Part shown: positions 3,324-27,739 of the stretch, piece after piece
Numbering within the stretch: the stretch's first letter is position 1
How the letters are laid out: each line of letters starts with the position of its first letter
Origin: Calditrichia bacterium
GTDB taxonomy: Bacteria; Calditrichota; Calditrichia; RBG-13-44-9
Assembly: GCA_027039625.1 (NCBI GenBank)
Contig: JALWDQ010000633.1
Coordinates: forward strand, 1-33,851
Reading direction: 5' to 3'
Length of the DNA: 33,851 nucleotides
The notes under the pieces: generated by a model
The model's input: the letters and a program-made list of their open reading frames with translations, nothing else
Databases searched by the model: none
What the model was told of the DNA's origin: nothing
Program-made: the position numbers and the translations under genes

Positions 3324-3368
3324 CACGAAATCTGAAATAGTGAGGAAACGATAATCCGGGAAGTTGCC

Positions 3369-4466: not shown

Positions 4467-4467
4467 A

Positions 4468-4640
4468 AAATTCCAAATTACAAATCCCAAATAACAAAAG
4501 ACAAATTCCAAAATCCAAATTCCAAATGTCAAAAAAACCGAGGCGATCGCAACGAGCGCAGCGAAAGCTCAAATTCCGGATAACAAATTCCAAATCAAAA
4601 ACAACAAAAAAACGAACTCCACATCACAAATCCTAAATGG
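4468..4640 (+). repeat. degenerate heptanucleotide tandem array 1 (consensus AAATTCC)
   Basis: In-phase heptads aaattcc/aaattac/aaatccc/aaataac/aaaagac/aaattcc/aaaatcc/aaattcc/aaatgtc/aaaaaaa occupy 4468-4537. A 33-nt insert (4538-4570) interrupts the array, which resumes at 4571-4640. Confidence 0.85.
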
Positions 4641-4681
4641 TTTAACATATTCTTTTTTTCCTAATTCAATCATTATTTTCC

Positions 4682-4734
4682 ATTCGTCCTTATTCGTGTT
4701 ATTCGTGGTTAAGTGCTTTTTTGTGTGATTCGTG
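4682..4734 (+). repeat. ATTCGTG heptamer cluster 1 (iteron-like)
   Basis: attcgtc at 4682; attcgtg at 4692, 4701 and 4728. Spacing is 10, 9 and 27 nt. Confidence 0.85.
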
Positions 4735-4802
4735 GTTAATGATTACTGGGAGGCGGAGGAATTGAACAAGCCTTATTGCCTGGCTCTCTTGAGGTGAGCC
4801 AC

Positions 4803-4845
4803 ATTCTGTCATTCTGAGCGGAGCGTTAGCGGAGCGAAGAATCTC
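4803..4845 (+). repeat. short dispersed-repeat-like module (gtcattctgagcggagcg..ggagcgaagaatc)
   Basis: Internal direct repeat agcggagcg x2 (4817-4825 and 4829-4837). It resembles the 'cattctgagcgaagcgaagaatc' type of intergenic repeat that yields junk ORFs (..LRMTE..) in many environmental genomes. Confidence 0.5.
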
Positions 4846-4922
4846 TTCTACATTACATGGAATAATCTTTCTTCGTATCAAAATAATACAGCTTGAGATG
4901 GTACTCTAAAATTATCAATACG

Positions 4923-4978
4923 AAATTCTAAACTACAAATCCCAAATTTCCAATCCCAAACAACAAATTCCAAATTCC
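4923..4978 (+). repeat. degenerate heptanucleotide tandem array 2 (AAATTCC-like)
   Basis: Eight in-phase heptads: aaattct/aaactac/aaatccc/aaatttc/caatccc/aaacaac/aaattcc/aaattcc. Confidence 0.85.
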
Positions 4979-5025
4979 GATAATTTAATAGATTCTTTCC
5001 GAATCTAATATTTTCCTTATTATTA

Positions 5026-5092
5026 ATTCGTGCATATTCGTGTGATTCGTGGTTAATAATTCGTGGGTAAGTTTCCATCCGTACAATTCGTG
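5026..5092 (+). repeat. ATTCGTG heptamer cluster 2 (iteron-like)
   Basis: Exact attcgtg at 5026, 5036, 5045, 5059 and 5086. Spacing is 10, 9, 14 and 27 nt. Confidence 0.85.
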
Positions 5093-5165
5093 GTTTTATT
5101 GATTCCGGCGATCTCGATAATTTTAAAACCCAATTCAAAATTCTTAATTCAAATTTCAAAATTAT

Positions 5166-5248
5166 TTCTGTCGTCCTTACAGGACTTAAAATGATGGGTG
5201 GAATTCACCTTCCCATGGCTGAAGGCCATGGGCTAAATTCTGTCGTCC
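5166..5248 (+). repeat. hairpin-containing repeat module bounded by an 11-nt direct repeat
   Basis: ttctgtcgtcc occurs at 5166-5176 and 5238-5248. An 8-bp hairpin pairs cccatggc (5212-5219) with gccatggg (5225-5232). A small hairpin gtcct/aggac lies at 5173-5185. Confidence 0.6.
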
Positions 5249-5354
5249 ACTCCGTGAACTCATCCCCTGCCAGCCGATAGTTTTTAAATCCTAAGAATCT
5301 ATTCCGACCACCTGGAGTATCCGGTTAAAAAATATCTTTTCTAATTATTGAAAC

Positions 5355-5471
5355 AAATCCCAAACAACAAATCCCAAATCACAAACGAAATTCCAAACCC
5401 CAAATCCCAATTAACAAAAAACAAATTCCAAGTCTCAAATAACAAGCATCAAATTCCAAATTCCAAATGAT
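5355..5471 (+). repeat. degenerate heptanucleotide tandem array 3 (AAATTCC/AAATCCC)
   Basis: About 16 heptads, with one 5-nt irregular unit at 5383-5387. The array ends ...aaattcc/aaattcc/aaatgat. Confidence 0.85.
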
Positions 5472-5511
5472 TAAGAGAATTTTTACACAATCTAATCATT
5501 TCTTTTTTTTC

Positions 5512-5564
5512 ATTCGTGTTTATTCGTGTGATTCGTGGGCAAATATCAATTCTTTTAATTCGTG
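5512..5564 (+). repeat. ATTCGTG heptamer cluster 3 (iteron-like)
   Basis: Exact attcgtg at 5512, 5522, 5531 and 5558. Spacing is 10, 9 and 27 nt, identical to cluster 1. Confidence 0.85.
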
Positions 5565-5692
5565 GTTTGAATTTTTAGAAGCTTTTGTACTCGCAAAATC
5601 AGTAACCCTCCAGCATGGGGTTTCGGGAAGAAAGCACCAAAACCATATTGGTTTTTTTCGTATTGTTTTTAAAGGGTGAATTATTTATTTTT

Positions 5693-5729
5693 GCGTGGCA
5701 TCCGTAAAAGAATGCCGCTTTATTTTTTT
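5693..5729 (+). terminator. terminator-like hairpin plus T-run just upstream of gatC
   Basis: gcgtggcat (5693-5701) pairs with atgccgc (5712-5718) with one bulge, followed by tttattttttt. Confidence 0.4.
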
Positions 5730-5749
5730 CTGAAAAAATACTTAAGATC

Positions 5750-6036
5750 ATGAAAGTATCCTTGCAGGAAGTGGAGCATCTGGCGCACCTAGAGGCGCTG
5801 GAATTTACTCCGGAAGAGAAGCAAAAAATTGCCACTGAACTGGAACGCATTCTGGAATATGTGCGTCAGCTGGAAGAAGTGGATACCACCGGCGTTGAAC
5901 CGCTGGAGCATCCCGGTGGCCCGGTGCAGGCTATGCGCCCGGATGAACCTCAACCTTCTCTTCCAGTAGAAGAGGCATTACGCAATGCTCCCGATCGGCA
6001 AGGAGGTTTCTTTCGGGTTCCCAGGGTGATTCGTAA

Positions 6037-13561: not shown

Positions 13562-14326
13562 ATGGCAGATTCCATGGAGCTGAAACAGATTCATTCGTCT
13601 TTGTTGCACACTAAAGACCTGGTGAAAATTTACGGAAAGCGCCGGGTGGTGGATCGGGTGAGTTTACGGGTACGCCAGGGCGAAATTGTGGGATTGCTGG
13701 GACCCAACGGGGCGGGAAAAACCACTTCCTTCTACATGATTACGGGAATGATCCGTCCCAACTCGGGGCAAATTTTTCTGGACGATCGCGATATCACCCG
13801 TTTGCCCATGTACAAACGGGCTCGGCTGGGAATTTCCTATCTGCCGCAGGAACCTTCTATTTTCCGCAAACTCACTGTGGAAGAGAACCTTCTGGCCATT
13901 CTGGAAGTGCTGGGATATTCCCGTGCCGAACGCCGCCGTCGCGCCGACGAATTGATGGAGGAATTGGGGATTATTCACATCGCAAAAAATAAAGGATACA
14001 ACCTTTCGGGAGGGGAGCGTCGCCGCACGGAAATTGCTCGTACTCTGGTAACCAATCCCAAATTCATTTTGCTGGACGAACCCTTTGCCGGAGTCGATCC
14101 CATTGCGGTGCAGGATATCCAGAACATCGTAAAGAAGTTGAAGGATAAAAACATCGGGGTGCTTATTACCGATCACAATGTACACGAAACCCTGTCCATT
14201 ACCGATCATGCCTATTTGCTGTTCGAAGGAAAAGTGCTCAAGGAAGGGGATAGTGAGTATCTTGCCAACGATCCCGAAGCCCGCAAATTGTATCTGGGCG
14301 ATAAATTTCGACTCATCCGTGAATAA
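13562..14326 (+). CDS. lptB: LPS export ABC transporter ATP-binding protein
   Basis: Walker [10 protein letters not shown], signature LSGGERRR, Walker [13 protein letters not shown]. Typical LptB C-terminus (..[10 protein letters not shown]). Confidence 0.92.
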
Positions 14327-15192: not shown

Positions 15193-16800
15193 ATGCATCA
15201 ATCTCATTTTCACAATATGATTTTATATTCTTATCTTGGAATTTCTGCCGTGTGGCTTGTTTTAATAATTGCTCACGCCCCCACGATTGTGATGATTATT
15301 GCAGCGATGGCTATGATTTTACCGGGAATCTATTTCAATCGGAATCTTAAAAATTATCTTTCTCGTCTTCACCAGCGAATAAGGGTATTGCGAGAGGGGA
15401 ATTTCGCTCTGGCCAGAAAAGGTGACACCGCAGGCAATGGACAATTAAATAAAATGGTAGATGATTTAACCACTTTCTACGAGAATGAAATGTTTCGAAT
15501 TATCGTGGAAGCCGAGAGAATCATTTCCATTTACAACGAAATGCAGGTAATTATTGACGATTTTTTACACAAGGCCGAAACGATGCAGCAAGTCTCTACC
15601 AGCGTGGCTTCTTCCACGGAGGAGATGAGTGTCAATACAGAAGCGGTATCGCAAACGATGGCGCAGGTGGCAGACAGTATGGAGAATGCTTCTTCCCGAA
15701 CCGGTGAGATGACCGAGACCATACAGGATATTTCCCGCAATGCTGACGAAACCCGGAAGATTGCTCGTAATGCGGTAGAGAGTGTCGGTGAAGCCACCAG
15801 TAAAATAATGGAGCTGGAAAACAAATCTTCGGAGATTAGCAAAATAATTGGTTTTATTGAGGATATCTCCGAGCAAACCAAGTTGCTGGCGTTTAATGCG
15901 ACGGTGGAAGCAGCTCGGGCGGGAGAGGCCGGTAAGGGATTTTCGGTAGTAGCAAACGAAGTTAAAGAACTGGCTAACCAAACAGCTCAGGCCACTGAAG
16001 ATATTAAGCGGAGTATTATCGAAGTTCAGCAGTTTTCCAACATTGCATCGAAAGAAATTTTGAAAATCAATGACATTATTCATCAGGTAGAGGAAAAGAT
16101 TTCTTCTATCGCGTTAGCTGTGGAACGCCAGGATATGACGACACGAGAAATTTCCCAGAGTATTGCCAACATCAATTCAGGGTTTAGTGAAGTGAAACAA
16201 AGCATTTTCGAGGTGGCAAATGCTGCTCGATTGATTGCCAGTGATATGGAAAAAATCAGTTTCGGTTCCAAACAGATGCTGGACGATAGTTTAAATATTG
16301 AGTCCGAAATTAAGGGGCTGGTAGATGTAGGGAAAAAGCTGGAAAGTTTTGCGAATAATTTCCATTTTTCAGAACGCTTCAAAAAGCAAATTGATGAAAT
16401 GGTACAGGTAGCCAAATTGCTTCAGGCCAGGGAGAAAGATCATTTAATATGGGTAAAGAAAGTGCAGAATGCCATTGTCGAAGGGGCGCAAACCATAGAT
16501 GTGCAAAAAGACCCCGCAATGTGCGCTTTTGGAAGATTCCTGAATAGCCCTGAGCGTAGAACATTGGAGAAAATCAATCCTGCTCTGCAGGAAATTTTTG
16601 CCCGGATGGAGGCGCCCCATAAGCGTTTGCATCATTCCGTCCATGAACTGGAACATATGTTGCAAAATCCCCACATTTCTTCCGCCGAAATCGAAAACTA
16701 TTACCAGACAGTCACTTTACAAATTCTTCGCGAACTTCTGAAGCTTTTCCATCAGGCGATTAACGAAAATTTCAAAGCCTCCCATCTGGTGCTAAATTGA
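15193..16800 (+). CDS. methyl-accepting chemotaxis protein with C-terminal CZB (chemoreceptor zinc-binding) domain
   Basis: Two N-terminal transmembrane helices without a periplasmic domain. MA signalling domain (EQTKLLAFNATVEAARAGEAGKGFSVVANEVKELA). CZB motif DHLIWV..x..CAFGRFL..x..HKRLHHSVH. Confidence 0.85.
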   Translation: MHQSHFHNMILYSYLGISAVWLVLIIAHAPTIVMIIAAMAMILPGIYFNRNLKNYLSRLHQRIRVLREGNFALARKGDTAGNGQLNKMVDDLTTFYENEMFRIIVEAERIISIYNEMQVIIDDFLHKAETMQQVSTSVASSTEEMSVNTEAVSQTMAQVADSMENASSRTGEMTETIQDISRNADETRKIARNAVESVGEATSKIMELENKSSEISKIIGFIEDISEQTKLLAFNATVEAARAGEAGKGFSVVANEVKELANQTAQATEDIKRSIIEVQQFSNIASKEILKINDIIHQVEEKISSIALAVERQDMTTREISQSIANINSGFSEVKQSIFEVANAARLIASDMEKISFGSKQMLDDSLNIESEIKGLVDVGKKLESFANNFHFSERFKKQIDEMVQVAKLLQAREKDHLIWVKKVQNAIVEGAQTIDVQKDPAMCAFGRFLNSPERRTLEKINPALQEIFARMEAPHKRLHHSVHELEHMLQNPHISSAEIENYYQTVTLQILRELLKLFHQAINENFKASHLVLN

Positions 16801-16873
16801 CATTGGGTGGGTAAAAAGTCCACTTGCAGAACACGATATCTCGGTAGGATTACTATTGTTTACTGGAAAAAGG

Positions 16874-16912
16874 AGCCTCTTCCGTTTCCAGGTATAGGAA
16901 ACAGAAGAGGCT
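16874..16912. terminator. bidirectional Rho-independent terminator between the convergent MCP and pfp genes
   Basis: A 16-bp stem pairs agcctcttccgtttcc (16874-16889) with ggaaacagaagaggct (16897-16912), with one G-U or mismatch position. T-rich runs flank it on both strands. Confidence 0.65.
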
Positions 16913-16916
16913 AATT

Positions 16917-18266
16917 TTATTTCGTCTCGTTTTCGTTGGACTCGGAGGGTGCAGCTTTTTTAGTGCTCTTTTTCTGGTACCGGGCGGGATTCAGATCCGG
17001 CATTTTCCAGATATCATTTTCTACAACGTGGTAGAAGCGTTCTTTGAATTCCTGCAAACTAATTCCGGCAGTAGCGGCATATTTAGCCAGCTCGTGGGGA
17101 TCCTCAAAATCCTCCTTGGTGAGGCGAAGCATGTACCGGCGGGCAATCTGGTAGTACTCCGAGTGGATATCCACCATCCGAACTTTGGTTCGCTTGGTTT
17201 TAGGATCAATGATTTCCTTGAAGAACATGGGAACAAAATGCCCTTCCTGAATAGAAACCATAGCCGCGTTCCCTCCCTGGAGTAAGAACTGAGCGGCACA
17301 ATATCCCAGATCCCGGGTGTATTCCATGTCGTAAGGAATGGGGTCAGCGCAGCGCAGCTCGTAGCCAATATTTTTAGCCACGATGGTGGTTTTAATACCA
17401 AACTTCTTCAATTCATCCTGAACATGGAATTTTAAGATTTCTCCAAAATTAACCTCTGCCAAACGGATGTTGTCGTGTTCATCCCGTTCGATGTTAAGAA
17501 GCACTTTGAGATCTTGCGGATCCAGTCGCTCCACCAGCCCTTCGGCTAGAATCGCTACCCCATCGGGACGCCCATAGCTTAACCGCTTGATGATGGCACC
17601 TACCAGAATATCAACAATCTTTTTCAATCGAATCTTTTGTTCGGGAAATTCTTCCGGAATCACGGTCAGGGTTGCACCCGCCGCTTTTCCAATTCCCAGA
17701 GCCAGATGCCCTGCTTTTCTCCCCATGGATACCACAAAATACCAGCGCGAGGTGGTCTGGGCATCCACCATTAAACTTTTTACAATCTCCACACCCAGAT
17801 GCCGTGCGGTCTGAAATCCAAATGTACAGATGCCGTAAGGCAAATCCAGGTCGTTATCGATGGTCTTGGGAACGTGCACCACCCGGATGCGGCCAGCAGC
17901 TTCCTCTTCCACTCGCATGGCACTGTAGGCAGTATCATCTCCACCGATAGTAATGAGCTTATCCACGTTCAGGCGAAGCAGAGAAGTAACCACATTTTCC
18001 AGATGTTTTTTATTTTTTGTGGGGTTTTCTCGGGAAATGCCAATGTATGAACCACCCCGGAAGTGAATCCGGCTTACCTGTTCGATGGTGAGATGTTTTA
18101 TGTGAGAAATATCGCCTCGCATAATCCATTTGAAGCCGTCCTTAATGCCAATCACTTCCACTCCTTCCAGAATACTTCGGATGGTAGCAGCACTGATGAC
18201 GCTGTTAATTCCAGGTGCCGGACCCCCGCCTACCAGAATAGCCAGATTTTTCGGTGCAATCGTCAT
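16917..18266 (-). CDS. pfp: pyrophosphate-dependent (or ATP-dependent) 6-phosphofructokinase, long PFK-A family form
   Basis: ILVGGGPAPGINSVI, IGGDDT, PKTIDNDL and MGRKAGHLAL motifs. Strong SD (aaggagg) upstream of the ATG. Confidence 0.88.
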   Translation of the reverse strand: MTIAPKNLAILVGGGPAPGINSVISAATIRSILEGVEVIGIKDGFKWIMRGDISHIKHLTIEQVSRIHFRGGSYIGISRENPTKNKKHLENVVTSLLRLNVDKLITIGGDDTAYSAMRVEEEAAGRIRVVHVPKTIDNDLDLPYGICTFGFQTARHLGVEIVKSLMVDAQTTSRWYFVVSMGRKAGHLALGIGKAAGATLTVIPEEFPEQKIRLKKIVDILVGAIIKRLSYGRPDGVAILAEGLVERLDPQDLKVLLNIERDEHDNIRLAEVNFGEILKFHVQDELKKFGIKTTIVAKNIGYELRCADPIPYDMEYTRDLGYCAAQFLLQGGNAAMVSIQEGHFVPMFFKEIIDPKTKRTKVRMVDIHSEYYQIARRYMLRLTKEDFEDPHELAKYAATAGISLQEFKERFYHVVENDIWKMPDLNPARYQKKSTKKAAPSESNENETK

Positions 18267-18773
18267 CGTGTACCTCCTTTCGTTAAAAACTCGCTAAATC
18301 TACCATCATTTCCTGCGAAATTCAAGGTGAAAACGTTTACCGGGTTGGGAAAAAGAGATAAAATAAGAGTGTATGGATATGGAAATGTGTAACTATAATA
18401 GAGAGTCTAAGGCTATCATGTTAGTTTTGTGTGAAATGTAACTTTTAATCCGTAACTTTACATTTCGGTGGTAGTGAATTAACGTTTGGAGGAAGATAAA
18501 AAAATTAAATAATAATTGATTTAGTTTAATATGCAATTATGTAAAATGAATGCACTTGATTTATATTAATTTTAAGATTATTATTTTAGAAAAGGTAACA
18601 AGAATTTATTTTAAATTGAAATTTAAAAAAGGTCTTGAATAATATAAATAAAATTAAAAACACTAAATAATTAACCTTTCCTTTCTAATAAAATATTTGA
18701 TTTGTTAATTTTAGCTTTAAACTTTTAAAAGGCAAATAATGGGAATTATCAAAACAAATAGAGAAAACTGCTC

Positions 18774-19520
18774 ATGAAAGAGAGAAAATATCGTAGACCA
18801 CCTATTGTGGAAGTAGTGTGTGAATTCCGATTTAAACATTCTTCCCCATGGGATGCTACAATTCCTGGACTTATCTATCATGAAGTAAAGAAAAAATTTA
18901 CCAGACGTCGTACTTTACGCAATGTGGGTATGCATGTTCAGGTTGAACATAAAGGTGTATTATTTCAGCCCCGGATGGAAGAAGGGACTCAATTTTTACA
19001 GGATGACGAACGGGCTTTTTTACAGTTACAACCGCGCCGTATTTCTGTTCATCATCTGGCACCCTATCCGCACTGGGAAGGATTTAAACCGTTGATCCAG
19101 TTAGCATATAAAGCATACTTAAAAGTTGTCCCTGATGCCACTATACAGCGGATTGGACTTCGTTATATTAATAAAATTAATTTCGATACACCAGAAGTTG
19201 ATTTATCAGCTTTTTTTAATTTTTATCCCTACGTGGGTAGAAAACTACCACAACGTTATACAGGATTTAATCTTCAATTGTTATTTCCCCATGAAGAAGG
19301 AAGAGACGCTCTTCAGATGCGTTTGAGCAACGCACCCCCAGAAAAAGAAAATGCAGCTTCCATTCTGTTAGACATTGATTATTTTCTAATAGATTCAAAG
19401 AATCTTTCTTCAGAAAGGGGATTGGAATGGGTGGAGAAAGCGCATGAAAACATATTGGCGGCATTCGAAGGGGCTATAACCGATAAATTACGACATCAAT
19501 TTGAGGAGGAGAAAGTATGA
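18774..19520 (+). CDS. TIGR04255-like uncharacterised protein
   Basis: The N-terminal signature YRRPPIVEVVCEFRF and the roughly 250-aa length match my recollection of the sporadically distributed TIGR04255 family. Low G+C. Confidence 0.55.
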   Translation: MKERKYRRPPIVEVVCEFRFKHSSPWDATIPGLIYHEVKKKFTRRRTLRNVGMHVQVEHKGVLFQPRMEEGTQFLQDDERAFLQLQPRRISVHHLAPYPHWEGFKPLIQLAYKAYLKVVPDATIQRIGLRYINKINFDTPEVDLSAFFNFYPYVGRKLPQRYTGFNLQLLFPHEEGRDALQMRLSNAPPEKENAASILLDIDYFLIDSKNLSSERGLEWVEKAHENILAAFEGAITDKLRHQFEEEKV

Positions 19521-19963
19521 CATTTGCCATACCTTCATCATTGGGTATTAAAAATATAGATCTAACATCTGGTTCTGGTAATCCACTCTGGGTTGATGAA
19601 GAAATAAATCAGTGGCAAAATAAAACAACTTCACAATTTGAACGTATTAGCATTTTGCCACAATTTTACAAAATTAATCAGCCAGGGGAAGTCTTTAGAT
19701 TTCTATATGACCATCCTGGTTTAATTGAAGTTGTGTTGGAAGCAGTGGAGATTTTACGAAATGTATTCGGACCGGATGCATCTCTGGAACTGGAATTGGT
19801 AACGGATCCAGAAGCGGATGAATCCGAGTTATTTGCCCTGGTAGAAGTCGATATGACTCCTGAAGTAGCCTTGCAAAAACTGGAGGAATTCGATCAAAAT
19901 TGGCTTCTGGATCGAGAAGAAATTACTAAGGGACTTTTTAATGTAGATGTGACGTTTCGATGA
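19517..19963 (+). CDS. hypothetical small protein with acidic C-terminal half (possible antitoxin or adaptor)
   Basis: ATGA overlap with the upstream stop codon. The acidic C-terminal half (LELELVTDPEADESELFALVEVDMTPEVALQKLEEFDQNW) looks like a small antitoxin-like protein. Confidence 0.5.
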   Translation: MTFAIPSSLGIKNIDLTSGSGNPLWVDEEINQWQNKTTSQFERISILPQFYKINQPGEVFRFLYDHPGLIEVVLEAVEILRNVFGPDASLELELVTDPEADESELFALVEVDMTPEVALQKLEEFDQNWLLDREEITKGLFNVDVTFR

Positions 19964-20334
19964 GATTTCAATGGGAAACATTCATTAATCTTGCTGAAAG
20001 GCTACATCAGGAAAGTGAATCCTTTGTGGAAACAGAAGCCTATCAGCGCTCGGCAATTAGCAGAGCCTATTACGGTGCATTTGGATTGGCACGCGAAATT
20101 GCAGTACGTGAAGGTCTTTCTTTAACTTTTACGGGGGAAGACCATAAAAATGTGGAACAGCATTTCCGGGGAAATTCACAAAAATTTCGTAAACAGATAG
20201 GAATAGAGCTGAATCGTTTAAGACGACTTCGGAATAAAGCAGATTCTGCGGAATCAATCTCGGGTTTGCCGAAGGAAACGCGAAAGGCTTTGGTGCAAGC
20301 ACGAAATATTGAATCTAATTTAAAAAAGTTGTAA
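19960..20334 (+). CDS. HEPN-like four-helix protein
   Basis: ATGA overlap with the upstream stop codon. RSAISRAYYGAFGLAREIA resembles classical HEPN helix 1. LRRLRNKADS resembles the HEPN R-x(4-6)-H region, but the His is missing. Confidence 0.5.
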   Translation: MRFQWETFINLAERLHQESESFVETEAYQRSAISRAYYGAFGLAREIAVREGLSLTFTGEDHKNVEQHFRGNSQKFRKQIGIELNRLRRLRNKADSAESISGLPKETRKALVQARNIESNLKKL

Positions 20335-20415
20335 ACAAAATTATTAGGAATGAATATATTTAGCACTGTGAGGTATTAAAATTTTAATTTTTTTAGAAAA
20401 TAGACAGGTAACGTA

Positions 20416-21543
20416 ATGCCAGAATATTTTATGTTAGAGCGGATTTTACTGCAAGGGTATAAATCAATTCATGAAGCAGATATTGAGCTTCGCCCTATTA
20501 ATGTGCTGATTGGAGCAAATGGTTCTGGCAAATCCAATTTTATTAGTTTATTTAAGTTTATGAACCGTTTAGTCAATCAGGATTTGCAGAAATATGTATT
20601 ACAATCGGGTGGAGCTGACCAGTTCCTTCACTATGGACGAAAGAAAACTGAGCGACTTCATATTGAACTCTGGTTTAGTAAAAATAATAAATTGGCAAAT
20701 GGTTATGAATGTTCATTAATACCTACGTCAAAAGATTTATTAGCATTCGAAAAGGAAGTAATTTATATTCACAACCGTGAAAAATATAAAAAACCTTACA
20801 TTATTGAAAAAACATTTCGTGTTCATGAAGAAACAATTATACCTAAATGGAAACAAAAACGTGTCCGTGTGTCGAAATATATCATGAAGGCTCTTCAATC
20901 GTGTAAATTGTATCATTTCCACGATACCAGTGATTCAGCCAGAGTTAAACAAACAGGCGATATTCACGACAATCTTTTCCTAAGACCAGATGCCTCGAAT
21001 CTTGCCGCATATTTATTTCTGCTTAAAAAAACGAAACCAGACTATTATCACAATATTGTAGAAACCATTCGTCTGGCTGCACCTTTCTTTGGGGATTTTA
21101 TTCTTCGTCCCTCACCTTTTAATCCTGATAAAATACGTCTGGAATGGAAAGAGAAAGGTTCAGATGTTCTTTTTGGCCCCAATTCACTTTCGGATGGAAC
21201 GCTTCGTTTTATCTGCCTCACCACTCTTTTTATGCAACCACCCGAAAAGTTGCCATCAACTATTGTACTGGATGAGCCTGAACTTGGGTTACATCCCTAT
21301 GCCATAGCTCTTCTGGCAGATATGGTTCGGAGTGTTGCCAAACATACGCAGGTTATCCTGGCAACCCAGTCGGTAACTCTTGTAAATCAATTCCTCCCGG
21401 AAGACATTCTGGTTGTTGACCGAATTGAGGGGAAAACCATCTTCCGACGTTTAACAGAAAAAGAGATGGCTTCCTGGCTTGAAGACTATGGTCTGGGAGA
21501 TTTATGGGAGAAAAATTTGCTGGGGGGACGTCCTGCGTTATGA
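20416..21543 (+). CDS. ABC/SMC-type ATPase (AAA_21/AAA_15-like, OLD/AbiL/PARIS-type ATPase)
   Basis: Walker A GANGSGKSN, ABC signature LSDGTLRF, Walker B IVLDEPELGLHP, switch region ILATQS. An alternative ATG lies at 20431. Confidence 0.85.
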   Translation: MPEYFMLERILLQGYKSIHEADIELRPINVLIGANGSGKSNFISLFKFMNRLVNQDLQKYVLQSGGADQFLHYGRKKTERLHIELWFSKNNKLANGYECSLIPTSKDLLAFEKEVIYIHNREKYKKPYIIEKTFRVHEETIIPKWKQKRVRVSKYIMKALQSCKLYHFHDTSDSARVKQTGDIHDNLFLRPDASNLAAYLFLLKKTKPDYYHNIVETIRLAAPFFGDFILRPSPFNPDKIRLEWKEKGSDVLFGPNSLSDGTLRFICLTTLFMQPPEKLPSTIVLDEPELGLHPYAIALLADMVRSVAKHTQVILATQSVTLVNQFLPEDILVVDRIEGKTIFRRLTEKEMASWLEDYGLGDLWEKNLLGGRPAL

Positions 21544-22208
21544 CAAAAGTGCTTATTTATGTAGAGGGACAAACGGAAGAAACTTTTGTTCGTGATTTAT
21601 TAGCGCCGTATTTCAAACAAAAATGCAGTATTTATTTAATCCCTTCGTTAGCAAGAACAAAACGAACCAGAGCCGGACGAGCGTTTAAAGGTGGGATTGT
21701 TTCATACGGTAAAGTTAAAAAAGATATTTTGAAGTTATTGGGTGACAGGAGTGCTGCATTAGTTACCACTATGTTAGATTTTTATGGTCTCCCCAATGAT
21801 TTCCCTGGAAAGAAATCCCTCTCCTCAGGTTCCCCAACTGATCGTGTTCAACATTTAGAAAAGGCATTTGGGGAGGACATAGCCAGTACTCGTTTTCTCC
21901 CTTTCCTTGTTTTGCATGAATTTGAAACATTTATCTTTGTGCAGCCTGAAAAACTCGCCGAAGCATTGCCCGGATATCTGACGGAAGTTCAAAATTTAAT
22001 TAAAAATGTTGGTCACTTAACTCCTGAAGAAATCAATGAAGGCAGGGACACCCATCCATCAGCACGAATTCTGAAACTATTTCCTACTTATCAAAAAAGA
22101 TTGCACGGACCGCTTATTATCAAAAAAATTGGTCTGAATTTGGTCAGGAGCAAATGCCCTCATTTTAATAACTGGTTCTCTAATTTAGAAAAATTATGCC
22201 CTGGTTAA
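21541..22208 (+). CDS. DUF4276 family protein (TOPRIM-like)
   Basis: The ATG at 21541 overlaps the ATPase stop codon (ATGA). N-terminal IYVEGQTEETF, central LHEFETFIF and C-terminal HPSARIL...CPHFNNW match my recollection of DUF4276. Confidence 0.65.
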
Positions 22209-22328: not shown

Positions 22329-23084
22329 TCACCCCCCAAACTGTTCCAGAGCAATCTCCCGTTTTTTAATGCGAGAATTTACCTGATGGTACAGATCGCC
22401 GGTACCCAGATCGACCCATTCTCCTCGGTGGACATACACACTCAAAGGTTGTTCCTCGGCCAGTGCGGGTAAATAGAAGTCAGTGATAATGGAAGAGAAC
22501 TCCGGTCGCAGATATTTTCGAGCTTGGGGAGTAAGAATCTGATAGCCCATAAAAATCCCTGTCTGCATTTTTTCGCCAGGAGGATTTCCCTTTCCCAGAA
22601 AACCCCGATGGTGGAATGCTTTATCAAAAATCACCAGGTTGTAATCCTGGTAGTTACGGGAAGGGAACACTGCCATGGTTGCTAAAGCAGGATGCTGGCG
22701 GTAATGGTGAATGAATTGAGGAAGAGAAATATCCGAAAGGATATCGGAATTCACGGTGAGAATCGTTTCTCCTGCGAAAAAATGTTCGGCGAAAGCAATA
22801 CCTCCACCGGTACCCAGGATTTCAGGTTCCATGCTGTAAAGAATTTCCAGCTCCCCCTGGTAATGGGTGTTTAAATGCTGGATAATTTTCTCTCCCTGGT
22901 GGTGCAGGTTAATCACGACCCGCTGGAAACCGGCTTTTTCTATTTTCTGAAGAATTAAATCCAATAATGTGGAGTGCCCCACGGGGAGCAAGCACTTGGG
23001 CAGCTCGCGCGAAAGTTCCCCCATCCGTGTGCCGAATCCCGCAGCTAAAACCATTGCGGTACGTATTTCAGTGCTTTCCTTCAT
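22329..23084 (-). CDS. sugar-1-phosphate nucleotidyltransferase (NTP_transferase family)
   Basis: MVLAAGFGTRMGELSRELPKCLLPV N-terminal motif. 251 aa. Substrate is not assignable. Confidence 0.8.
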   Translation of the reverse strand: MKESTEIRTAMVLAAGFGTRMGELSRELPKCLLPVGHSTLLDLILQKIEKAGFQRVVINLHHQGEKIIQHLNTHYQGELEILYSMEPEILGTGGGIAFAEHFFAGETILTVNSDILSDISLPQFIHHYRQHPALATMAVFPSRNYQDYNLVIFDKAFHHRGFLGKGNPPGEKMQTGIFMGYQILTPQARKYLRPEFSSIITDFYLPALAEEQPLSVYVHRGEWVDLGTGDLYHQVNSRIKKREIALEQFGG

Positions 23085-23190
23085 CGTGTTGTCTTAGATC
23101 CTTCTGCTAAACAAATTACAATCCATTTGATTTAAATTTAACCCAAATATATATTCAATCAAAATGTGAAAGCAAAAAAGGACTCTACGC

Positions 23191-24147
23191 ATGAAACGAA
23201 TTCTGGTAACGGGCGGCGCCGGTTTTCTGGGCTCTCATCTGGTGGAACGCCTTTTGAACGAAGGAAATGACGTTCTGTGTCTGGATAATTTTTTCACCGG
23301 TTCCAAACGCAATATTCTGCATTTAATGGACAATCACCGTTTTGAGCTTATTCGCCACGATATTACCCAGCCCATTTTGCTGGAAGTGGACGAAATTTAT
23401 CATTTTGCCTGTCCCGCTTCACCTGTCCATTATCAGTACAATCCCGTAAAAACAATTAAAACCAATGTGATGGGTACCATACATATGCTGGGACTGGCCA
23501 AGCGGGTGAAAGCACGGATTTTACTGGCATCTACTTCCGAGGTGTACGGTGATCCCCAGGTCCATCCCCAACGGGAGGATTACTGGGGACATGTGAATCC
23601 CATTGGTATTCGCAGTTGTTATGATGAAGGCAAACGGGTGGCCGAAACGTTAATGATGGATTACCATCGGCAGAACAATGTGGATATTCGCATCATCCGG
23701 ATTTTCAATACCTATGGTCCTCGCATGGCTGCCAACGATGGGCGGGTGGTAAGCAATTTTATTATTCAGGCGTTAAGAGGAGAGGATATCACAGTTTACG
23801 GCGATGGAAGCCAGACTCGCTCTTTTTGCTATGTGGATGATTTGATTGAAGGTGCTGTGAGGATGATGAATCAGGATGGTTTTATCGGACCCGTCAATCT
23901 GGGAAATCCCAATGAATTCACCATTCTGGAACTGGCTGAGAAAGTGATTCAGTTAACCGGTTCCCGGTCGAAGATTGTATTTAAACCGTTGCCCCAGGAT
24001 GATCCCACCCAGAGGCGACCGGATATCTCTCTGGCTCGCCAGAAATTAAACTGGGAACCCACGGTGCAACTGGAAGAAGGGTTGAAGCGTACTATCCATT
24101 ACTTCGATCGGTTGCTACGGGGTGAACCATTAATGCCCGGGCAGTGA
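23191..24147 (+). CDS. UDP-glucuronate decarboxylase (UDP-xylose synthase), SDR family
   Basis: [40 protein letters not shown] and [10 protein letters not shown] are characteristic of the UXS/ArnA-decarboxylase clade. Confidence 0.88.
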
Positions 24148-24177
24148 GAAAGAAGTCAAATAAAATTAAAGGCTTTT

Positions 24178-25857
24178 ATGAAAAAACGTGTGTTAATTAT
24201 TCTGTTAATGGTTGCTCTGTCCTTCCCCCTCCTGGCGGGAGAAAGTATCCCTCCTTACCACTGGGTGTGGAATTATTTGAACTATTTGAAGGTAGCCGGG
24301 TATCTTCCGGAACTGGATATGACCAATGGACCGACGGACCGGGAAGTAATAGCTGGCTATTTGTTACATATTGACCCAGAAAAAATTCCAGAAGGTTCCC
24401 GGGAGTGGAAGATGGTGCGCATATTGTTTCGTGAATTTGCCGAAGAGATAAAAGAAATTGGGAATTCGGGGGGCGATCGCTCCCGGGAATGGTTACAGAA
24501 AATCCTGGAGCGTTTGCAAATGGCTGTGCTTCCGGAAACGGTGCGTTCACGGGTACGCTTCGGAGCGTTTGGAATGGTAACCCCTCGTTACAAAAACGAG
24601 GATGTGACCACGGATTTTCAGTTTCACACCCGATTGGGATTGCAATTTGGAAAACGGTTTACCCTGTATAATAATATGAAAGTGTTTAATCATCTACCAA
24701 AGGGCTATATTGGTAAAACTACTCGTAAGCTGTATGCCTACACCGAACAAGCGTATTTGCAAATAAACGGGGGAATTTTTCGTTTCAAAATCGGTCGGGA
24801 TTACCTGGAGGTAGGACCCGGGCGTACCGGGAAGCTTTTGATGAGTGCGAACAGCCGTCCCTTCGATATGTATCACGCTCAGTTTGGTAAACGCTATTTT
24901 CATTTTTCGTTCTGGGGAATTATGCTGGATCCCCGTCCCATTGTGCAGGAGGAATTGAAACAGTACGCTCCGATTGCCCGACGTTACCTGAATGGCCATC
25001 GCCTTTCGGTGAATATTAAAAACCGTTATTTTGTAGGGGCTTCGGAAGTGATGGTATATGGCGGGCCCAATGCGAACTGGGATCTGGCATTTATGAATCC
25101 GTTTACTATTTATTACGGGCACCAGGCGAATGGACCGTATGCGCCTGGAAACGTGCTTTATTCTCTGGACTGGGATTTGTATTTACCGCACCAGGTAGAA
25201 CTTTATGGAGAGTTTTTGGTAGATGATTTTCAGGTGGATAAAAAGGTTCCGGGTGATCTGGAACCCAATGAACTGGGACTGCTGGTTGGGGTTAATTGGG
25301 CGAATCCTCTCCGGTGGGCCACTTCCATGCTGGGAACAGAATATGTTCAAATTCGCAATCGCACCTACAATGCCCCGGTGAATGATTGGGAAAAGTATCT
25401 TCACCGCAATCAGGTAATTGGATACTACCTGGGAAATGATTTTAAACGCTGGAGTATTCAACTGGAGAAGTGGGTGCACCCCGATCTCTCGGTTAAAGGA
25501 TTTGCTCATCTCATTCGCAAAGGGGAAGGAACGGTGGAAGGGGAGTTTAATACGGATTACATGAATTACACTGTAGAAGAAGGATATCACGAACCCTTCC
25601 CCTGGGGAATTGTGGAACGCCACTGGCAGTGGGGTGTGGCGCTATTTTATCGTCCCCATCCTCTGGCAAATATTACCTTGAATATTGCTTACAACGATTT
25701 CCATAATTACCAGCACGTAACCGGTGCTACGCATTCGGAAATAAGCGCTTCGGTAAACCTGTGGTTACAATGGGATACAGTATTCCGTACTTCCCGGCTG
25801 GAAATCGATCGCTGGCAACTGGAGTTCGATAATCCGGATTCGGAGGAGGAAAAGTGA
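24178..25857 (+). CDS. secreted/outer-membrane protein, possibly Wzi-like capsule assembly beta-barrel
   Basis: Signal peptide and a beta-rich, aromatic-rich 559-aa ORF. The N-terminal ...YLNYLKVAGYLPEL... resembles Wzi-family N-terminal regions. The family call is weak. Confidence 0.45.
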   Translation: MKKRVLIILLMVALSFPLLAGESIPPYHWVWNYLNYLKVAGYLPELDMTNGPTDREVIAGYLLHIDPEKIPEGSREWKMVRILFREFAEEIKEIGNSGGDRSREWLQKILERLQMAVLPETVRSRVRFGAFGMVTPRYKNEDVTTDFQFHTRLGLQFGKRFTLYNNMKVFNHLPKGYIGKTTRKLYAYTEQAYLQINGGIFRFKIGRDYLEVGPGRTGKLLMSANSRPFDMYHAQFGKRYFHFSFWGIMLDPRPIVQEELKQYAPIARRYLNGHRLSVNIKNRYFVGASEVMVYGGPNANWDLAFMNPFTIYYGHQANGPYAPGNVLYSLDWDLYLPHQVELYGEFLVDDFQVDKKVPGDLEPNELGLLVGVNWANPLRWATSMLGTEYVQIRNRTYNAPVNDWEKYLHRNQVIGYYLGNDFKRWSIQLEKWVHPDLSVKGFAHLIRKGEGTVEGEFNTDYMNYTVEEGYHEPFPWGIVERHWQWGVALFYRPHPLANITLNIAYNDFHNYQHVTGATHSEISASVNLWLQWDTVFRTSRLEIDRWQLEFDNPDSEEEK

Positions 25858-26738
25858 AGGGATTCCTCATCGGTCATTATACGGATGCTGCGGGAGGAAC
25901 CGGGTGCACGGTGGTATTGTGCCCCGAAGGAACCATTGGCTCCGGAATGGTCCGGGGTGCGGCTCCCGGTACCCGCGAGTACGCCCTGCTGGATCCCCAT
26001 CGTAAAGTGGAGGAAATCCATGCTGTATTTCTTACCGGCGGAAGCGCTTTTGGGCTGGATGCTGCCGCGGGTGTGATGCGCTTTCTGAAAGAACGGGATG
26101 TGGGATTTCCCACTATTTTCGGAAAAGTTCCCATTGTGCCTGCTGCGGTGGTGTACGATTTGTATTCGGGACAATCTGAATCTTTTCCCACCGCCGAAAA
26201 TGCCTATGAAGCTTGCCAGAGGGCAGAAGAAGGAGAACCCCCTCAAGGGCGGGTAGGAGCTGGAACCGGTGTGACTGTGGGGAAATGGGCCGGATTGGAA
26301 TATATGATGCCCGCCGGAATTGGCTGGGCGCAGGTCGTCTGGAAGAATGTTCAGGTGGAAGCATTGTCGGTAGTGAATCCCGTGGGAGATGTGGTGGACG
26401 GACAGGGAAACATTATTGCCGGTGCACAAAAAGACGGGCGTTTTCTGGCTCAGGGGAATCCCACCCTGCGCTGGGAACCACCGGATGTGGGATTGGGGCA
26501 GAACACCATCCTTACCGTGCTGATGACCAATGCCCGATTAACTAAATTGCAGCTTCATTTAATGGCAGATCGAGCGCATCTGGGAATTGCCCGGGCCGTG
26601 GTACCTTCGCACACTGCTTACGATGGGGATATCGTGTTTACCCTTTCCCGGGGTGAAGTACCGGTTAATTCCGAGACGGTTTTCGAAATGGGCATCGAAG
26701 CCGTGCGTCAATCGATTCTTAACGCTGTTTCCTACTAA
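25854..26738 (+). CDS. DmpA/S58 (P1) family aminopeptidase
   Basis: GFLIGHYTDAAGGTGCTVVL, RGAAPGTRE and FLTGGSAFGLDAA motifs. The GTG start overlaps the upstream stop codon (GTGA). Confidence 0.85.
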   Translation: MKGFLIGHYTDAAGGTGCTVVLCPEGTIGSGMVRGAAPGTREYALLDPHRKVEEIHAVFLTGGSAFGLDAAAGVMRFLKERDVGFPTIFGKVPIVPAAVVYDLYSGQSESFPTAENAYEACQRAEEGEPPQGRVGAGTGVTVGKWAGLEYMMPAGIGWAQVVWKNVQVEALSVVNPVGDVVDGQGNIIAGAQKDGRFLAQGNPTLRWEPPDVGLGQNTILTVLMTNARLTKLQLHLMADRAHLGIARAVVPSHTAYDGDIVFTLSRGEVPVNSETVFEMGIEAVRQSILNAVSY

Positions 26739-26755
26739 AGAAGACTTCTGTTTAA

Positions 26756-27739
26756 ATGCAAGTACATACCCAAAAATTTCGATTTGGATTGTTTTTAATC
26801 ATCTCTTCGCTTTCCCTGCTGGTGTTACTTGCTGTGGTTACCAGCCGCCATTTATTCAAGAAAACAGATAAATATTACATTGCTTACGAGAATGTGTCCG
26901 TGAGCGGCCTGGAAGTGGGGAGTCCGGTTAAATATCTGGGAATTACAGTGGGAAGCATTACGGATATTCGAATCGATCCCAAAAATGTGAATCGCATCAT
27001 TGTGGAAGTTTCGCTGGATAAAGGGACGCCCATAAAACAGGATGCGCGTGCGGATATTGCCAGCATTGGGATTACCGGCTTAAAAATGATTGAAATCCAT
27101 GGAGGCAGTAATCAGGCACCGCTCTTGAAGCCGGGGCAGTTCATCCGGGCAGGAACCTCTATGACCATGCAAATTACCGGCAAGGCAGAGGTTATTTCCG
27201 AAAAACTGGAACGATTGTTAAACAACCTGAATCAGGTAACTCAACCGGAAAAGATGGAAAAAATTTACCAGCTGGTGGAAAACGCCACCGCAACTTTTTC
27301 CCGGTTGAATCGCATCCTCTCCGAGAACAGCCAGTACCTGGCGGTAACTTTGAGACGGAGTGCTCATATTACCGCCCAACTGGATAGTATGACCGCTGCG
27401 ATGAAACAATCCGCAGAAGAGATTAATCGCTTAATCGTAAGTGATACGTTAAAAGATATTATTGTGAATGCCCGGGCTATTTCTGAAGAAATTAAAAAGG
27501 CGCGATTGGTAGATCTGGTGAAGCAGCTGGCTCTGGTGGTAGAGCGCACCAACAATATTCTTATTCAGGTGGAACACGATCTGGGGCAGGGCAGCCAGAC
27601 CTTCAACGAAAGTATGAAGGAATTGCGCAGCAGCCTGGAATACCTGAACCAGGTGAGTCAAATGTTAAGTGAAGATCCGTCAATTTTAATTCGCGGAACC
27701 AAACCTGGAGATATCCCGGATAAGAAACTGGAGAAATAA
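26756..27739 (+). CDS. mlaD: MlaD/MCE-domain protein with long helical C-terminal extension
   Basis: N-terminal transmembrane helix, MCE core (VSGLEVGSPVKYLGITVGSITDI), then about 200 aa of helical sequence. Confidence 0.8.
   Translation: MQVHTQKFRFGLFLIISSLSLLVLLAVVTSRHLFKKTDKYYIAYENVSVSGLEVGSPVKYLGITVGSITDIRIDPKNVNRIIVEVSLDKGTPIKQDARADIASIGITGLKMIEIHGGSNQAPLLKPGQFIRAGTSMTMQITGKAEVISEKLERLLNNLNQVTQPEKMEKIYQLVENATATFSRLNRILSENSQYLAVTLRRSAHITAQLDSMTAAMKQSAEEINRLIVSDTLKDIIVNARAISEEIKKARLVDLVKQLALVVERTNNILIQVEHDLGQGSQTFNESMKELRSSLEYLNQVSQMLSEDPSILIRGTKPGDIPDKKLEK

Follow-up and report, generated by a model that had tools for sequence, protein, structure and literature searches.

An ABC-type ATPase and DUF4276 gene pair in a Calditrichia bacterium belongs to the HEC-01 family and lies in a five-gene cassette

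What is the two-gene unit that lies among housekeeping genes on contig JALWDQ010000633.1 of a Calditrichia bacterium (assembly GCA_027039625.1), and does it belong to an anti-phage system that is already known? The stretch analysed, called the window here, covers positions 1 to 33,851 of this contig (33,851 nucleotides, nt). A preliminary description, made by a model from the sequence, had read the unit as an ABC-type ATPase translationally coupled to a DUF4276 protein, in a split arrangement resembling OLD, PARIS and AbiL, and had implied that the combination was new. It was found that the pair is a member of the named HEC-01 family, a candidate anti-phage system, and that the pairing is already known and not new. 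The two open reading frames (ORFs) and their junction are as follows.

20416-21543, + strand: ORF A, HEC-01A, a 375-residue (aa) ABC-type ATPase (AAA_21/AAA_15/SMC_N), from Pfam, PADLOC and AlphaFold2/Foldseek
21540-22208, + strand: ORF B, HEC-01B, a 222-aa DUF4276 protein, Toprim-like and a predicted metal-dependent nuclease, from Pfam, PADLOC and AlphaFold2/Foldseek
21540-21543, + strand: ATGA in which the stop of A and the start of B overlap, with translational coupling; the same 4-nt overlap is found in 47 of 77 loci

Identity of the two genes as HEC-01

The assignment is carried by the PADLOC models. HEC-01A (PDLC04175) matches A at 2.3e-149, with residues 6-373 on profile positions 5-362 of 363, and HEC-01B (PDLC04188) matches B at 3.2e-76, with residues 1-219 on profile positions 12-226 of 230; the genes are adjacent on the same (+) strand with a 4-nt overlap. 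HEC-01 stands for Hma-embedded candidate 01, described as an ABC ATPase together with a TOPRIM protein within Hma systems (Payne et al. 2024, 10.1101/2024.01.29.577857). In that source, the TOPRIM protein has a metal site in common with Burkholderia OLD (BpOLD), and the HEC candidates were chosen for being common outside Hma as well.

The same grouping recurs in other work. The PARIS Nature paper (2024) added AbiL and MADS3-4 (Mad3-Mad4) to the ABC ATPase plus Toprim systems, and the Menshen study (2025) placed DUF4276 and RloB in the Toprim superfamily and named Mad4 a DUF4276 homologue. The architecture proposed in the preliminary description, an ABC ATPase with a Toprim-like partner as in OLD, PARIS and AbiL, was right, and the literature already groups Mad3-Mad4 with PARIS and AbiL. 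Its remark that the DUF4276 version is annotated only generically holds for RefSeq, where the names for the family are generic, and does not hold for PADLOC, which catalogues the pair as HEC-01. The implied novelty is lost: the description had itself named an already characterised system as the outcome that would count against it, and the PADLOC HEC-01 models match, though the characterisation of HEC-01 is still shallow. The finding is mainly a correct rediscovery of a combination that has already been named, classed with OLD, PARIS, AbiL and MADS, and tested, and the pair is one unremarkable representative of a family already described.

Protein A is an ABC-type ATPase of the SMC/Rad50/OLD/PtuA-like kind. 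Pfam AAA_21 was matched at 1.2e-27 (98.2 bits against a cut-off of 27), AAA_15 at 5.6e-15 and SMC_N at 4.9e-13, which bears out the AAA_21/AAA_15 family named beforehand. The AlphaFold2 model, with a predicted local distance difference test score (pLDDT) of 89.2, gave an SMC head, Rad50, PtuA (Septu/retron) and Thermus OLD as top Foldseek matches at E 1e-13 to 1e-15, and the nearest solved sequence relative is the class 1 OLD nuclease 6p74 from Thermus (4.4e-11 by profile). The Walker A motif, the ABC signature, a Walker B motif with its catalytic glutamate and the ABC head fold are all present, and every motif that the preliminary description quoted for A was recovered within 20416-21543. The conserved elements of A, with invariance judged over 52 homologues, are listed below.

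20512-20538, + strand: Walker A / P-loop GANGSGKSN (residues 33-41), with the catalytic K39; G33, N35, G36, G38 and K39 invariant
21187-21210, + strand: ABC signature LSDGTLRF (residues 258-265); S259-D260-G261-T262-L263-R264 invariant
21262-21297, + strand: Walker B and D-loop region IVLDEPELGLHP (residues 283-294, with D286 and E287); D286, E287, P288, E289 and H293 invariant
21355-21372, + strand: H-loop position ILATQS (residues 314-319) with Gln318, placed by profile alignment to Thermus OLD 6p74; T317, Q318 and S319 invariant
21487-21540, + strand: near-invariant C-terminal tail YGLGDLWEKNLLGGRPAL (residues 358-375), predicted disordered; G361, L363, W364, E365, K366, N367, G370, G371 and P373 invariant, as is W354 just upstream

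Two of these elements are notable. The H-loop histidine of ABC ATPases is missing from A: 'qvilatqs' of A aligns with 'QIIYSTHS' of Thermus OLD 6p74, so that the invariant Gln318 stands opposite the histidine. The last ~20 residues (YGLGDLWEKNLLGGRP) are almost invariant, yet they are predicted to be disordered, with pLDDT below 50 at residues 360-375; this tail is a likely candidate for a partner-docking peptide, judging from its conservation and the model. In the HEC-01 literature consulted, neither the H-loop Gln nor the disordered tail of HEC-01A is mentioned.

Protein B was confirmed as a DUF4276 protein by a hidden Markov model search with Pfam PF14103, which gave 1.2e-49 and 169.6 bits against a cut-off of 30.2 over profile positions 1-192 of 192. 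Its AlphaFold2 model (pLDDT 91.2, predicted template modelling score 0.88) has the order beta1(2-8)-alpha(11-29)-beta2(31-37)-alpha(56-67)-beta3(72-80)-alpha(99-114)-beta4(about 119-123), and its best match in the PDB is weak, with a template modelling score (TM) of ~0.4. The top three Foldseek matches in the PDB are the Toprim-containing C-terminal regions of Xanthomonas OLD, 6njv, 6njw and 6njx (E 2e-3 to 8e-3, probability 0.87-0.96, TM ~0.4), and the top weak matches in a viral structure library include a topoisomerase and an RloB-like phage protein (probability 0.93). Searched against PDB sequences, the B profile returned nothing even at E up to 10, and the Toprim assignment therefore has two sources, the predicted fold and the residue pattern.

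Three elements define the Toprim domain, a Glu following beta1, a Gly following beta2 and a DxD motif following beta3, and in Burkholderia OLD two metal sites are formed by E400, E404, D455, D457, T506 and E508, together with K562 (Schiltz et al., PMC6755086). Conservation in B was followed in 62 homologues and in an eight-sequence set that includes members only 32-35% identical. Invariant in the divergent set are E9, G10, E13, G46, K50-G51-G52, T76, T77, D80, Y82, G83, E127-F128-E129, R176, K186, C206 and W212. Over the 62 sequences, G10, E13, T77, D80 and Y82 are invariant, and E9, T76 and G83 are at least 90% conserved. In the model, E9 directly follows strand 2-8, G46 and K50-G51-G52 come after beta2 and a hairpin, D80 lies at the end of beta3, and E127 and E129 follow beta4. 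The elements that bear on a metal site are as follows.

21549-21587, + strand: beta1 and E9-G10-Q-T-E13-E14, the Toprim glutamate with a second Glu four residues on (compare BpOLD E400/E404)
21765-21809, + strand: end of beta3, TTMLD80-F-Y82-G, with the first Asp of DxD kept and the second an invariant Tyr
21906-21932, + strand: end of beta4, H126-E127-F128-E129, candidate second metal site (compare BpOLD T506-x-E508); E127, F128 and E129 invariant
22089-22109, + strand: K186, invariant, within the helical C-terminal part (R176 lies upstream of it), which may correspond to the catalytic lysine of OLD (BpOLD K562)

The earlier reading of EGxxE as the first Toprim motif agrees with this arrangement, in which E9-G-x-x-E13 follows beta1 and the predicted fold best, if weakly, matches the Toprim region of OLD. 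The glutamate pair, the first Asp, the acidic pair and the Lys are kept but the second Asp of DxD is Tyr, and B is therefore read as Toprim-like with a modified metal site. By sequence and model, its acidic residues and K186 may be equivalent to the metal ligands and the lysine of BpOLD.

At the junction, the TGA of A (21541-21543) overlaps the ATG of B (21540-21542) just as had been described, and the 222-aa form of B begins MTKVLIYVEGQTEETF. Public gene calls start the DUF4276 gene at ATG 21504, which gives 234 aa and makes the gene overlap A by 40 nt. Position 21540 is preferred as the start because Met1 of the 222-aa form is an invariant alignment column over the 62 homologues and because the 4-nt overlap recurs in relatives; the database entries for this gene probably carry a false N-terminal extension of 12 residues.

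Distribution of the pair and a five-gene cassette

The distribution of HEC-01 is patchy, and the pair has spread horizontally. Of 1.84 billion cluster representatives, the B profile matched 4,967 with E no higher than 1e-3 and 1,567 at 1e-30; each of the best 150 has a single domain and a length of 177-247 aa. At least 563 relatives were confirmed in 185,579 one-per-species genomes, on contigs of Chloroflexota, Acidobacteriota, Verrucomicrobiota, Planctomycetota, Myxococcota, Nitrospirota, Bacteroidota, Gammaproteobacteria (e.g. Xenorhabdus), Bacillota and Patescibacteria, among others. Among the matches listed, the closest named relatives of both A and B come from Calditrichaeota and Kapaibacterium metagenome-assembled genomes (MAGs). 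B has no PHROG match. Relatives of B occur on 13 of 72,556 plasmids; one Aeromonas plasmid has the order WYL-SNF2-A-B-methylase, a second has methylase-A-B-DEAD helicase, and an 11-kb mobilisable Acinetobacter plasmid carries a stand-alone pair adjoining VapBC. On Aeromonas veronii plasmid pHX3 (L094, 782-9725), where the pair has a DNA methylase on one side and a DEAD/DEAH helicase on the other, there is also an annotated OLD-type 'ATP-dependent endonuclease' just upstream, which puts two ABC-ATPase/Toprim-type modules side by side.

The two genes are strictly paired. An A homologue lies directly upstream of B in all 77 loci for which upstream DNA was available, and the junction falls within -4 to +3 nt in 70 of them. 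No third gene is conserved over these loci, the largest cluster of neighbours covering 7 loci and reflecting Xenorhabdus synteny. An apparent A-B fusion at locus L035, where the frame of A stays open for 383 nt beyond the start of B, was rejected because B lies in another frame, and it is read as a lost stop in a GC-rich genome.

Neighbours were sampled as 70 immediately adjacent genes at 35 diverse loci and searched with Pfam and PADLOC. Pfam matches among them include 7 DEAD, 5 SNF2 and 3 ResIII helicase domains and 6 N6_N4 methylases, and PADLOC matches include Type III methylase, DrmD, BrxH and HmaA models. By a semi-quantitative count, ~15-20% of loci are locally embedded in helicase/methylase systems. 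For comparison, 115 genes more than 6 kb away match 19 PADLOC families versus 203 for the near set; these are per-family counts, again semi-quantitative, and several of the far matches are generic ABC transporters on the mad3 model. The 'mad3' matches of this control set came from such generic ABC ATPases. The window holds a case of its own, an ordinary ABC_tran transporter ATPase at 13562-14326, downstream of OstA/LptA-like genes, which matches PADLOC mad3 at 2.5e-27 and mad8 at 5e-11. Since generic ABC ATPases match the mad3 model, single mad3 matches should be read as defence genes with caution.

In the window, the pair sits in a low-GC islet, with a G+C fraction of 0.33-0.41 against 0.45-0.53 in the flanks, bounded by PFK (16917-18266, - strand) and an NTP-transferase gene (22329-23084, - strand). 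The rest of the window is housekeeping: KdsB, CTP synthase, a KdsD-like protein, Lpt proteins, a chemoreceptor, PFK, nucleotide-sugar enzymes, Wzi and Mla. No methylase, restriction or helicase domain was found among the annotated flanking genes (15193-18266 and 22329-27739), and the pair is not embedded in Hma here, as no helicase/methylase/ATPase trio was found in the flanks.

Within the islet the pair is preceded by three further genes, U1, U2 and U3, which are translationally coupled and with which it forms a cassette.

18738-22199, + strand: cassette U1-U2-U3-A-B, a single travelling block within this lineage (blastn, GC)
18774-19520, + strand: U1, a TIGR04255-family protein of 248 aa (NCBIfam TIGR04255, 1.4e-40)
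19517-19963, + strand: U2, an orphan protein of 148 aa, with ATGA overlaps with U1 and U3
19960-20334, + strand: U3, a HEPN-like protein of 124 aa (PADLOC HEPN_IX, 4.5e-5)

The cassette is a single block of homology. By blastn, window 18738-22199 aligns to 2552-6026 of locus L087 (GCA_027005515.1) at 78.2% identity over 3478 nt, and the homology stops at both cassette edges. In L087, which holds the closest relative's cassette, the five genes come after a Type IIG restriction-methylase (RM; E = 0), and beyond them lie an unknown gene and genes for a HerA-like ATPase and a Type II methylase. L085, L086, L088, L090 and L091 have the cassette too, and the carriers include a Calditrichaeota MAG (L090) and a JGI metagenome contig; the window itself is 97.7% identical to a contig of GCA_026991005.1. 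Four contexts were seen: between PFK and the NTP-transferase gene (window and L085), after a Type IIG RM (L087 and L088), next to a SpoIIE/kinase neighbourhood (L090), and that of L091. Only 8 homologues of U2 were found, and all 7 that could be placed lie in such cassettes (P0246, on a 737-nt contig, was left out). All five genes are under purifying selection: the ratio of nonsynonymous to synonymous substitution rates (dN/dS) is 0.06-0.08 for U1, 0.20-0.25 for U2, ~0.2 for U3, 0.05-0.07 for A and 0.15-0.18 for B, with dS of 0.7-1.6.

Outside these cassettes the trio was not seen. U1-U3 are absent from the 80 other HEC-01 genome loci, both by tblastn and when 886 proteins encoded nearby were searched with profile HMMs (E up to 1). 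A metagenome scan with the U1 alignment returned a single contig, already known to carry the cassette, and a viral scan with U3 found nothing. U1 has no Pfam, PADLOC or PHROG match. U3 also matches a HEPN domain-containing protein in the PDB (9xbd, E 0.036) and, over its full length, the phage family phrog_5176 (2.2e-12). The trio is not catalogued in PADLOC, and TIGR04255 is not mentioned in the literature searched. The five-gene cassette with TIGR04255, orphan and HEPN-like genes is a small new observation, local to this lineage.

Three further observations concern the cassette and its site. Relatives of U3 share a conserved R-L-R-N-K-A-D-Y that resembles a HEPN-type Arg motif (window 20230-20260, U3 residues ~91-100), and the U3 of the window reads RNKADSAESI there, with Ser in place of Tyr and a divergent segment after it. 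In the Calditrichaeota MAG (L090 7219-10453, RFHE01000273.1) a full U1, a 90-aa U2 fragment and a truncated second U1 (216 aa) are followed by a full U2, a shortened U3 (102 aa), A and B; this partial tandem duplication suggests a recent rearrangement of the trio. In a distantly related Candidatus Kapaibacterium MAG (L006 4700-7837) a PFK gene lies directly upstream of the HEC-01 pair on the opposite strand, as in the window, which may reflect coincidence or a common insertion hotspot. This synteny was not taken as evidence for vertical descent, since the two loci resemble each other in DNA within gene A only and their PFK proteins are of unequal length (345 versus 449 aa).

Other features of the window were also recorded. 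Direct or inverted repeats flanking the cassette that could mark an insertion were sought, and only short, chance-level matches were found. The scan of the window returned no tRNA genes or Rfam families. Between 18200 and 22500, promoter-like sites are near the shuffle expectation (18 against a mean of 13, standard deviation 2.7), terminator-like sites are below it, and no usable operon boundary came out of the scan. At 4459-5570 there is a 1.1-kb low-GC (~0.35) stretch with no ORF of 100 aa or more; it holds a composite repeat in three copies ~455-486 nt apart, each with runs of a 7-nt CAAATNC-like unit followed by ATTCGTGTGATTCGTGGTT-type motifs, and it has no Rfam or tRNA match.

A proposed mechanism and its alternatives

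By analogy with PARIS, AbiL, OLD and the Mad3-Mad4 pair of MADS, the unit is best read as a HEC-01-type two-gene module in which an ATPase sensor or regulator is combined with a Toprim-like nuclease and defence would proceed by licensed cutting (probability about 0.62). The ATGA overlap gives coupled amounts of A and B, and the two proteins therefore probably form a complex. A would dimerise on ATP, and the dimer would act as an ATP-dependent sensor or regulator that restrains or targets the nuclease B. A cue from phage or other foreign DNA could then lead A to license B, by activating or releasing it. B would cut nucleic acid, either DNA or tRNA, by means of two metal ions bound to E9, E13, D80, E127 and E129 and with help from K186; as a result the invader may be restricted or the infected cell arrested. 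It is possible, as a weakly held point, that the H-loop Gln slows hydrolysis and makes ATP binding the switch. Complex formation, trigger, substrate (DNA versus tRNA) and outcome are drawn from the analogous systems. This reading is favoured by the families and predicted folds of A and B, by the conservation of their catalytic-type residues, by the strict and coupled pairing seen in many phyla, by purifying selection on both genes, by the low-GC islet, and by how often copies sit next to or within restriction-like systems. It is also favoured by two published results, the protection of E. coli B by one HEC-01 representative (PMC12881386) and the weakening of MADS defence when mad3 or mad4 is deleted. 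Three features offer handles for work on the mechanism: the invariant D-x-Y in place of DxD, the invariant H-loop Gln, and the invariant disordered tail of the ATPase.

Several points weigh against this defence module. To our knowledge, no DUF4276 protein has a demonstrated nuclease activity, complex, trigger or target, and none has a solved structure. The structural match of B to solved Toprim domains is weak (TM ~0.4, E 2e-3) with no sequence match in the PDB, and in place of the DxD expected of a Toprim domain B has D80-F-Y82, with only the first Asp kept. Most of the 35 loci have housekeeping immediate neighbours, such as RecA, KaiC, PFK and DNA polymerase A. Relatives of B are absent from 50,697 phage genomes, and none was found by a pattern scan of IMG/VR, unlike OLD and PARIS. 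The description had also been unsure whether the pair had been tested. HEC-01 has been tested twice in E. coli, and the phage tests disagree. The first representative did not protect E. coli K-12 from any of the phages used (Payne et al. 2024, 10.1101/2024.01.29.577857), and a cold-seep representative cloned into E. coli B is listed with three other candidates as protective against one or more of T7, T5 and T4 (2026 Nature Communications, PMC12881386). The main text of the latter gives neither the magnitude of protection nor the phage that was blocked.

The most serious alternative is that the functional unit is the five-gene cassette and not the pair, with the trio supplying, for example, a sensor, a regulator or a second RNase effector to HEC-01 in this lineage. 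The cassette is one homology block with sharp edges (78% nucleotide identity over 3478 nt), it occurs in four genomic contexts, every U2 homologue that can be placed is within it, and ATGA overlaps join U1 to U2 and U2 to U3. With dS of 0.7-1.6 and dN/dS of 0.05-0.25 for all five genes, the linkage has therefore outlasted the near-saturation of silent sites. If it held, this arrangement would be a new multi-component variant of ABC-ATPase/Toprim defence and would give the uncharacterised TIGR04255 family its first functional context; the cassette could also explain why HEC-01 activity might depend on host or partner, or it could be two defence modules travelling together. Adjacent independent defence modules do often co-travel, however. 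None of the 80 other genome loci contains the trio, and HEC-01 therefore does not generally need it. The 81-nt AT-rich gap between U3 and A means that trio and pair may have separate promoters, and the few cassettes known are all in related uncultivated bacteria. We regard a five-gene unit as unlikely, at about one chance in five. Less likely again, HEC-01 would serve helicase/methylase systems linked to methylation (Hma, DISARM-like, MADS) as an accessory effector, and the stand-alone window copy, which has neither methylase nor helicase, would be an orphaned remnant, inert or repurposed. HEC-01 was discovered embedded in Hma, and its first stand-alone test in E. coli was negative (Payne et al. 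2024); Mad3 and Mad4 are required in MADS and tied to methylase-dependent toxicity; and ~15-20% of sampled loci, together with two Aeromonas plasmids, have the pair between an SNF2 or DEAD helicase and a methylase. Against this, most loci are stand-alone, yet their genes are intact with invariant catalytic residues, and selection is strongly purifying in the stand-alone cassette lineage. The HEC candidates were moreover picked as common outside Hma too, and a cloned representative was reported protective (PMC12881386).

Two further readings give the pair no dedicated anti-phage role. One makes it a selfish, toxin-antitoxin-like addiction module, with B as a nuclease toxin and A as the ATPase that neutralises it, which would stabilise islands and plasmids. 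It could draw on the patchy, horizontal distribution that includes plasmids, with one copy on an 11-kb mobilisable plasmid beside VapBC, on the tight, stoichiometric coupling of A and B, on the Pfam label of AAA_21 ('putative AbiEii toxin, Type IV TA system') and on the name 'AriA antitoxin' given by one PDB depositor. The pair is found on just 13 of 72,556 plasmids, however, addiction alone does not account for its recurrent embedding in restriction-like systems, and phage protection has been reported (PMC12881386), which makes this reading improbable. The other, a housekeeping pair for DNA repair or recombination like RecF (ABC ATPase) and RecR (Toprim), is the least credible of all. A does match RecF, Rad50 and SMC models weakly, RecR is counted in the Toprim family (PMC6755086), and RecA is an immediate neighbour at 2 of 35 loci, but the confirmed relatives in 185,579 species genomes number at least 563, the locus has an atypical GC, its neighbourhood is not conserved, and the pair is catalogued among defence candidates with one positive phage assay.

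Comparison with known systems

The best solved relatives of both proteins are OLD nucleases (Thermus 6p74 for A, the Xanthomonas C-terminal region for B), and the E/E+4 pair, Asp, acidic pair after beta4 and Lys of B run parallel to E400/E404, D455, T506-E508 and K562 of BpOLD (PMC6755086). OLD is also carried by phage P2 (PARIS Nature paper, 2024). In OLD and GajA, however, the ATPase and Toprim parts are fused, whereas here they are two polypeptides, and the second Asp of DxD is Tyr in B. Class 2 OLD and Gabija have an adjacent UvrD-like helicase (GajB), and none was found in the flanks here. Membership in the OLD family or Gabija was rejected because of the separate ORFs, the lack of a flanking helicase and the weak matches of A to Old (1.7e-15) and GajA (8.9e-14).

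AbiL and PARIS are two-gene systems and come nearer in organisation. AbiL joins the AbiLi ATPase to the small Toprim-like AbiLii/RloB; A matches AbiLi at 1.3e-21, and the predicted structure of B finds one of its best matches in an RloB-like phage protein (probability 0.93). No AbiLii/RloB model matches B by sequence, and the two are separate Pfam families (PF13707 versus PF14103). AbiL was rejected for the missing AbiLii/RloB match and for an A-AbiLi score far below that of A with HEC-01A. PARIS, which combines in adjacent genes the ABC ATPase AriA with AriB (DUF4435), a Toprim tRNA nuclease, is the best-understood precedent for a Toprim nuclease that an ATPase first retains and later sets free, and A matches AriA at 3.6e-27. 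But B is DUF4276 and not DUF4435, with no AriB match at E up to 0.1; A, at 375 aa, is much smaller than the 464-aa AriA chains in the PDB, and it has Gln at the position aligned with the H-loop His of Thermus OLD. PARIS is, according to its authors, often encoded in viral genomes, and relatives of B were not found in the phage collections searched. PARIS was rejected on the missing AriB match and because A matches AriA only through the common ATPase core.

MADS contains a homologous pair, as Mad3-Mad4 is an AAA_15/21-type ABC ATPase beside a protein called a DUF4276 homologue. Both Mad3 and Mad4 are required for full MADS defence in Pseudomonas aeruginosa, where single mad3 and mad4 deletions weaken defence, and mad5 can be deleted only if mad2 or mad3 is deleted too (10.1101/2023.03.30.534895; PMC11464382; PMC12065111). 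In the model of the MADS authors, mad6-8 are mandatory. The window pair was rejected as MADS because the NCBIfam MAD3 cut-off is 420 bits and A reaches 104.6, B matches no PADLOC mad4 model at E up to 0.1, and the other mad genes were not found nearby, the annotated flanking genes having no domain able to stand for mad1, mad2 or mad5-8.

HEC-01 itself is the system that the pair matches. The copy in the window differs in lying outside Hma, in a low-GC islet among housekeeping genes, and in being joined to U1-U3, which are outside the HEC-01 definition. In all else that was compared it agrees: the two families, their order and strand are the same, both profiles are matched at full length, and the published description is the same, an ABC ATPase with a TOPRIM-like protein that has a conserved metal site.

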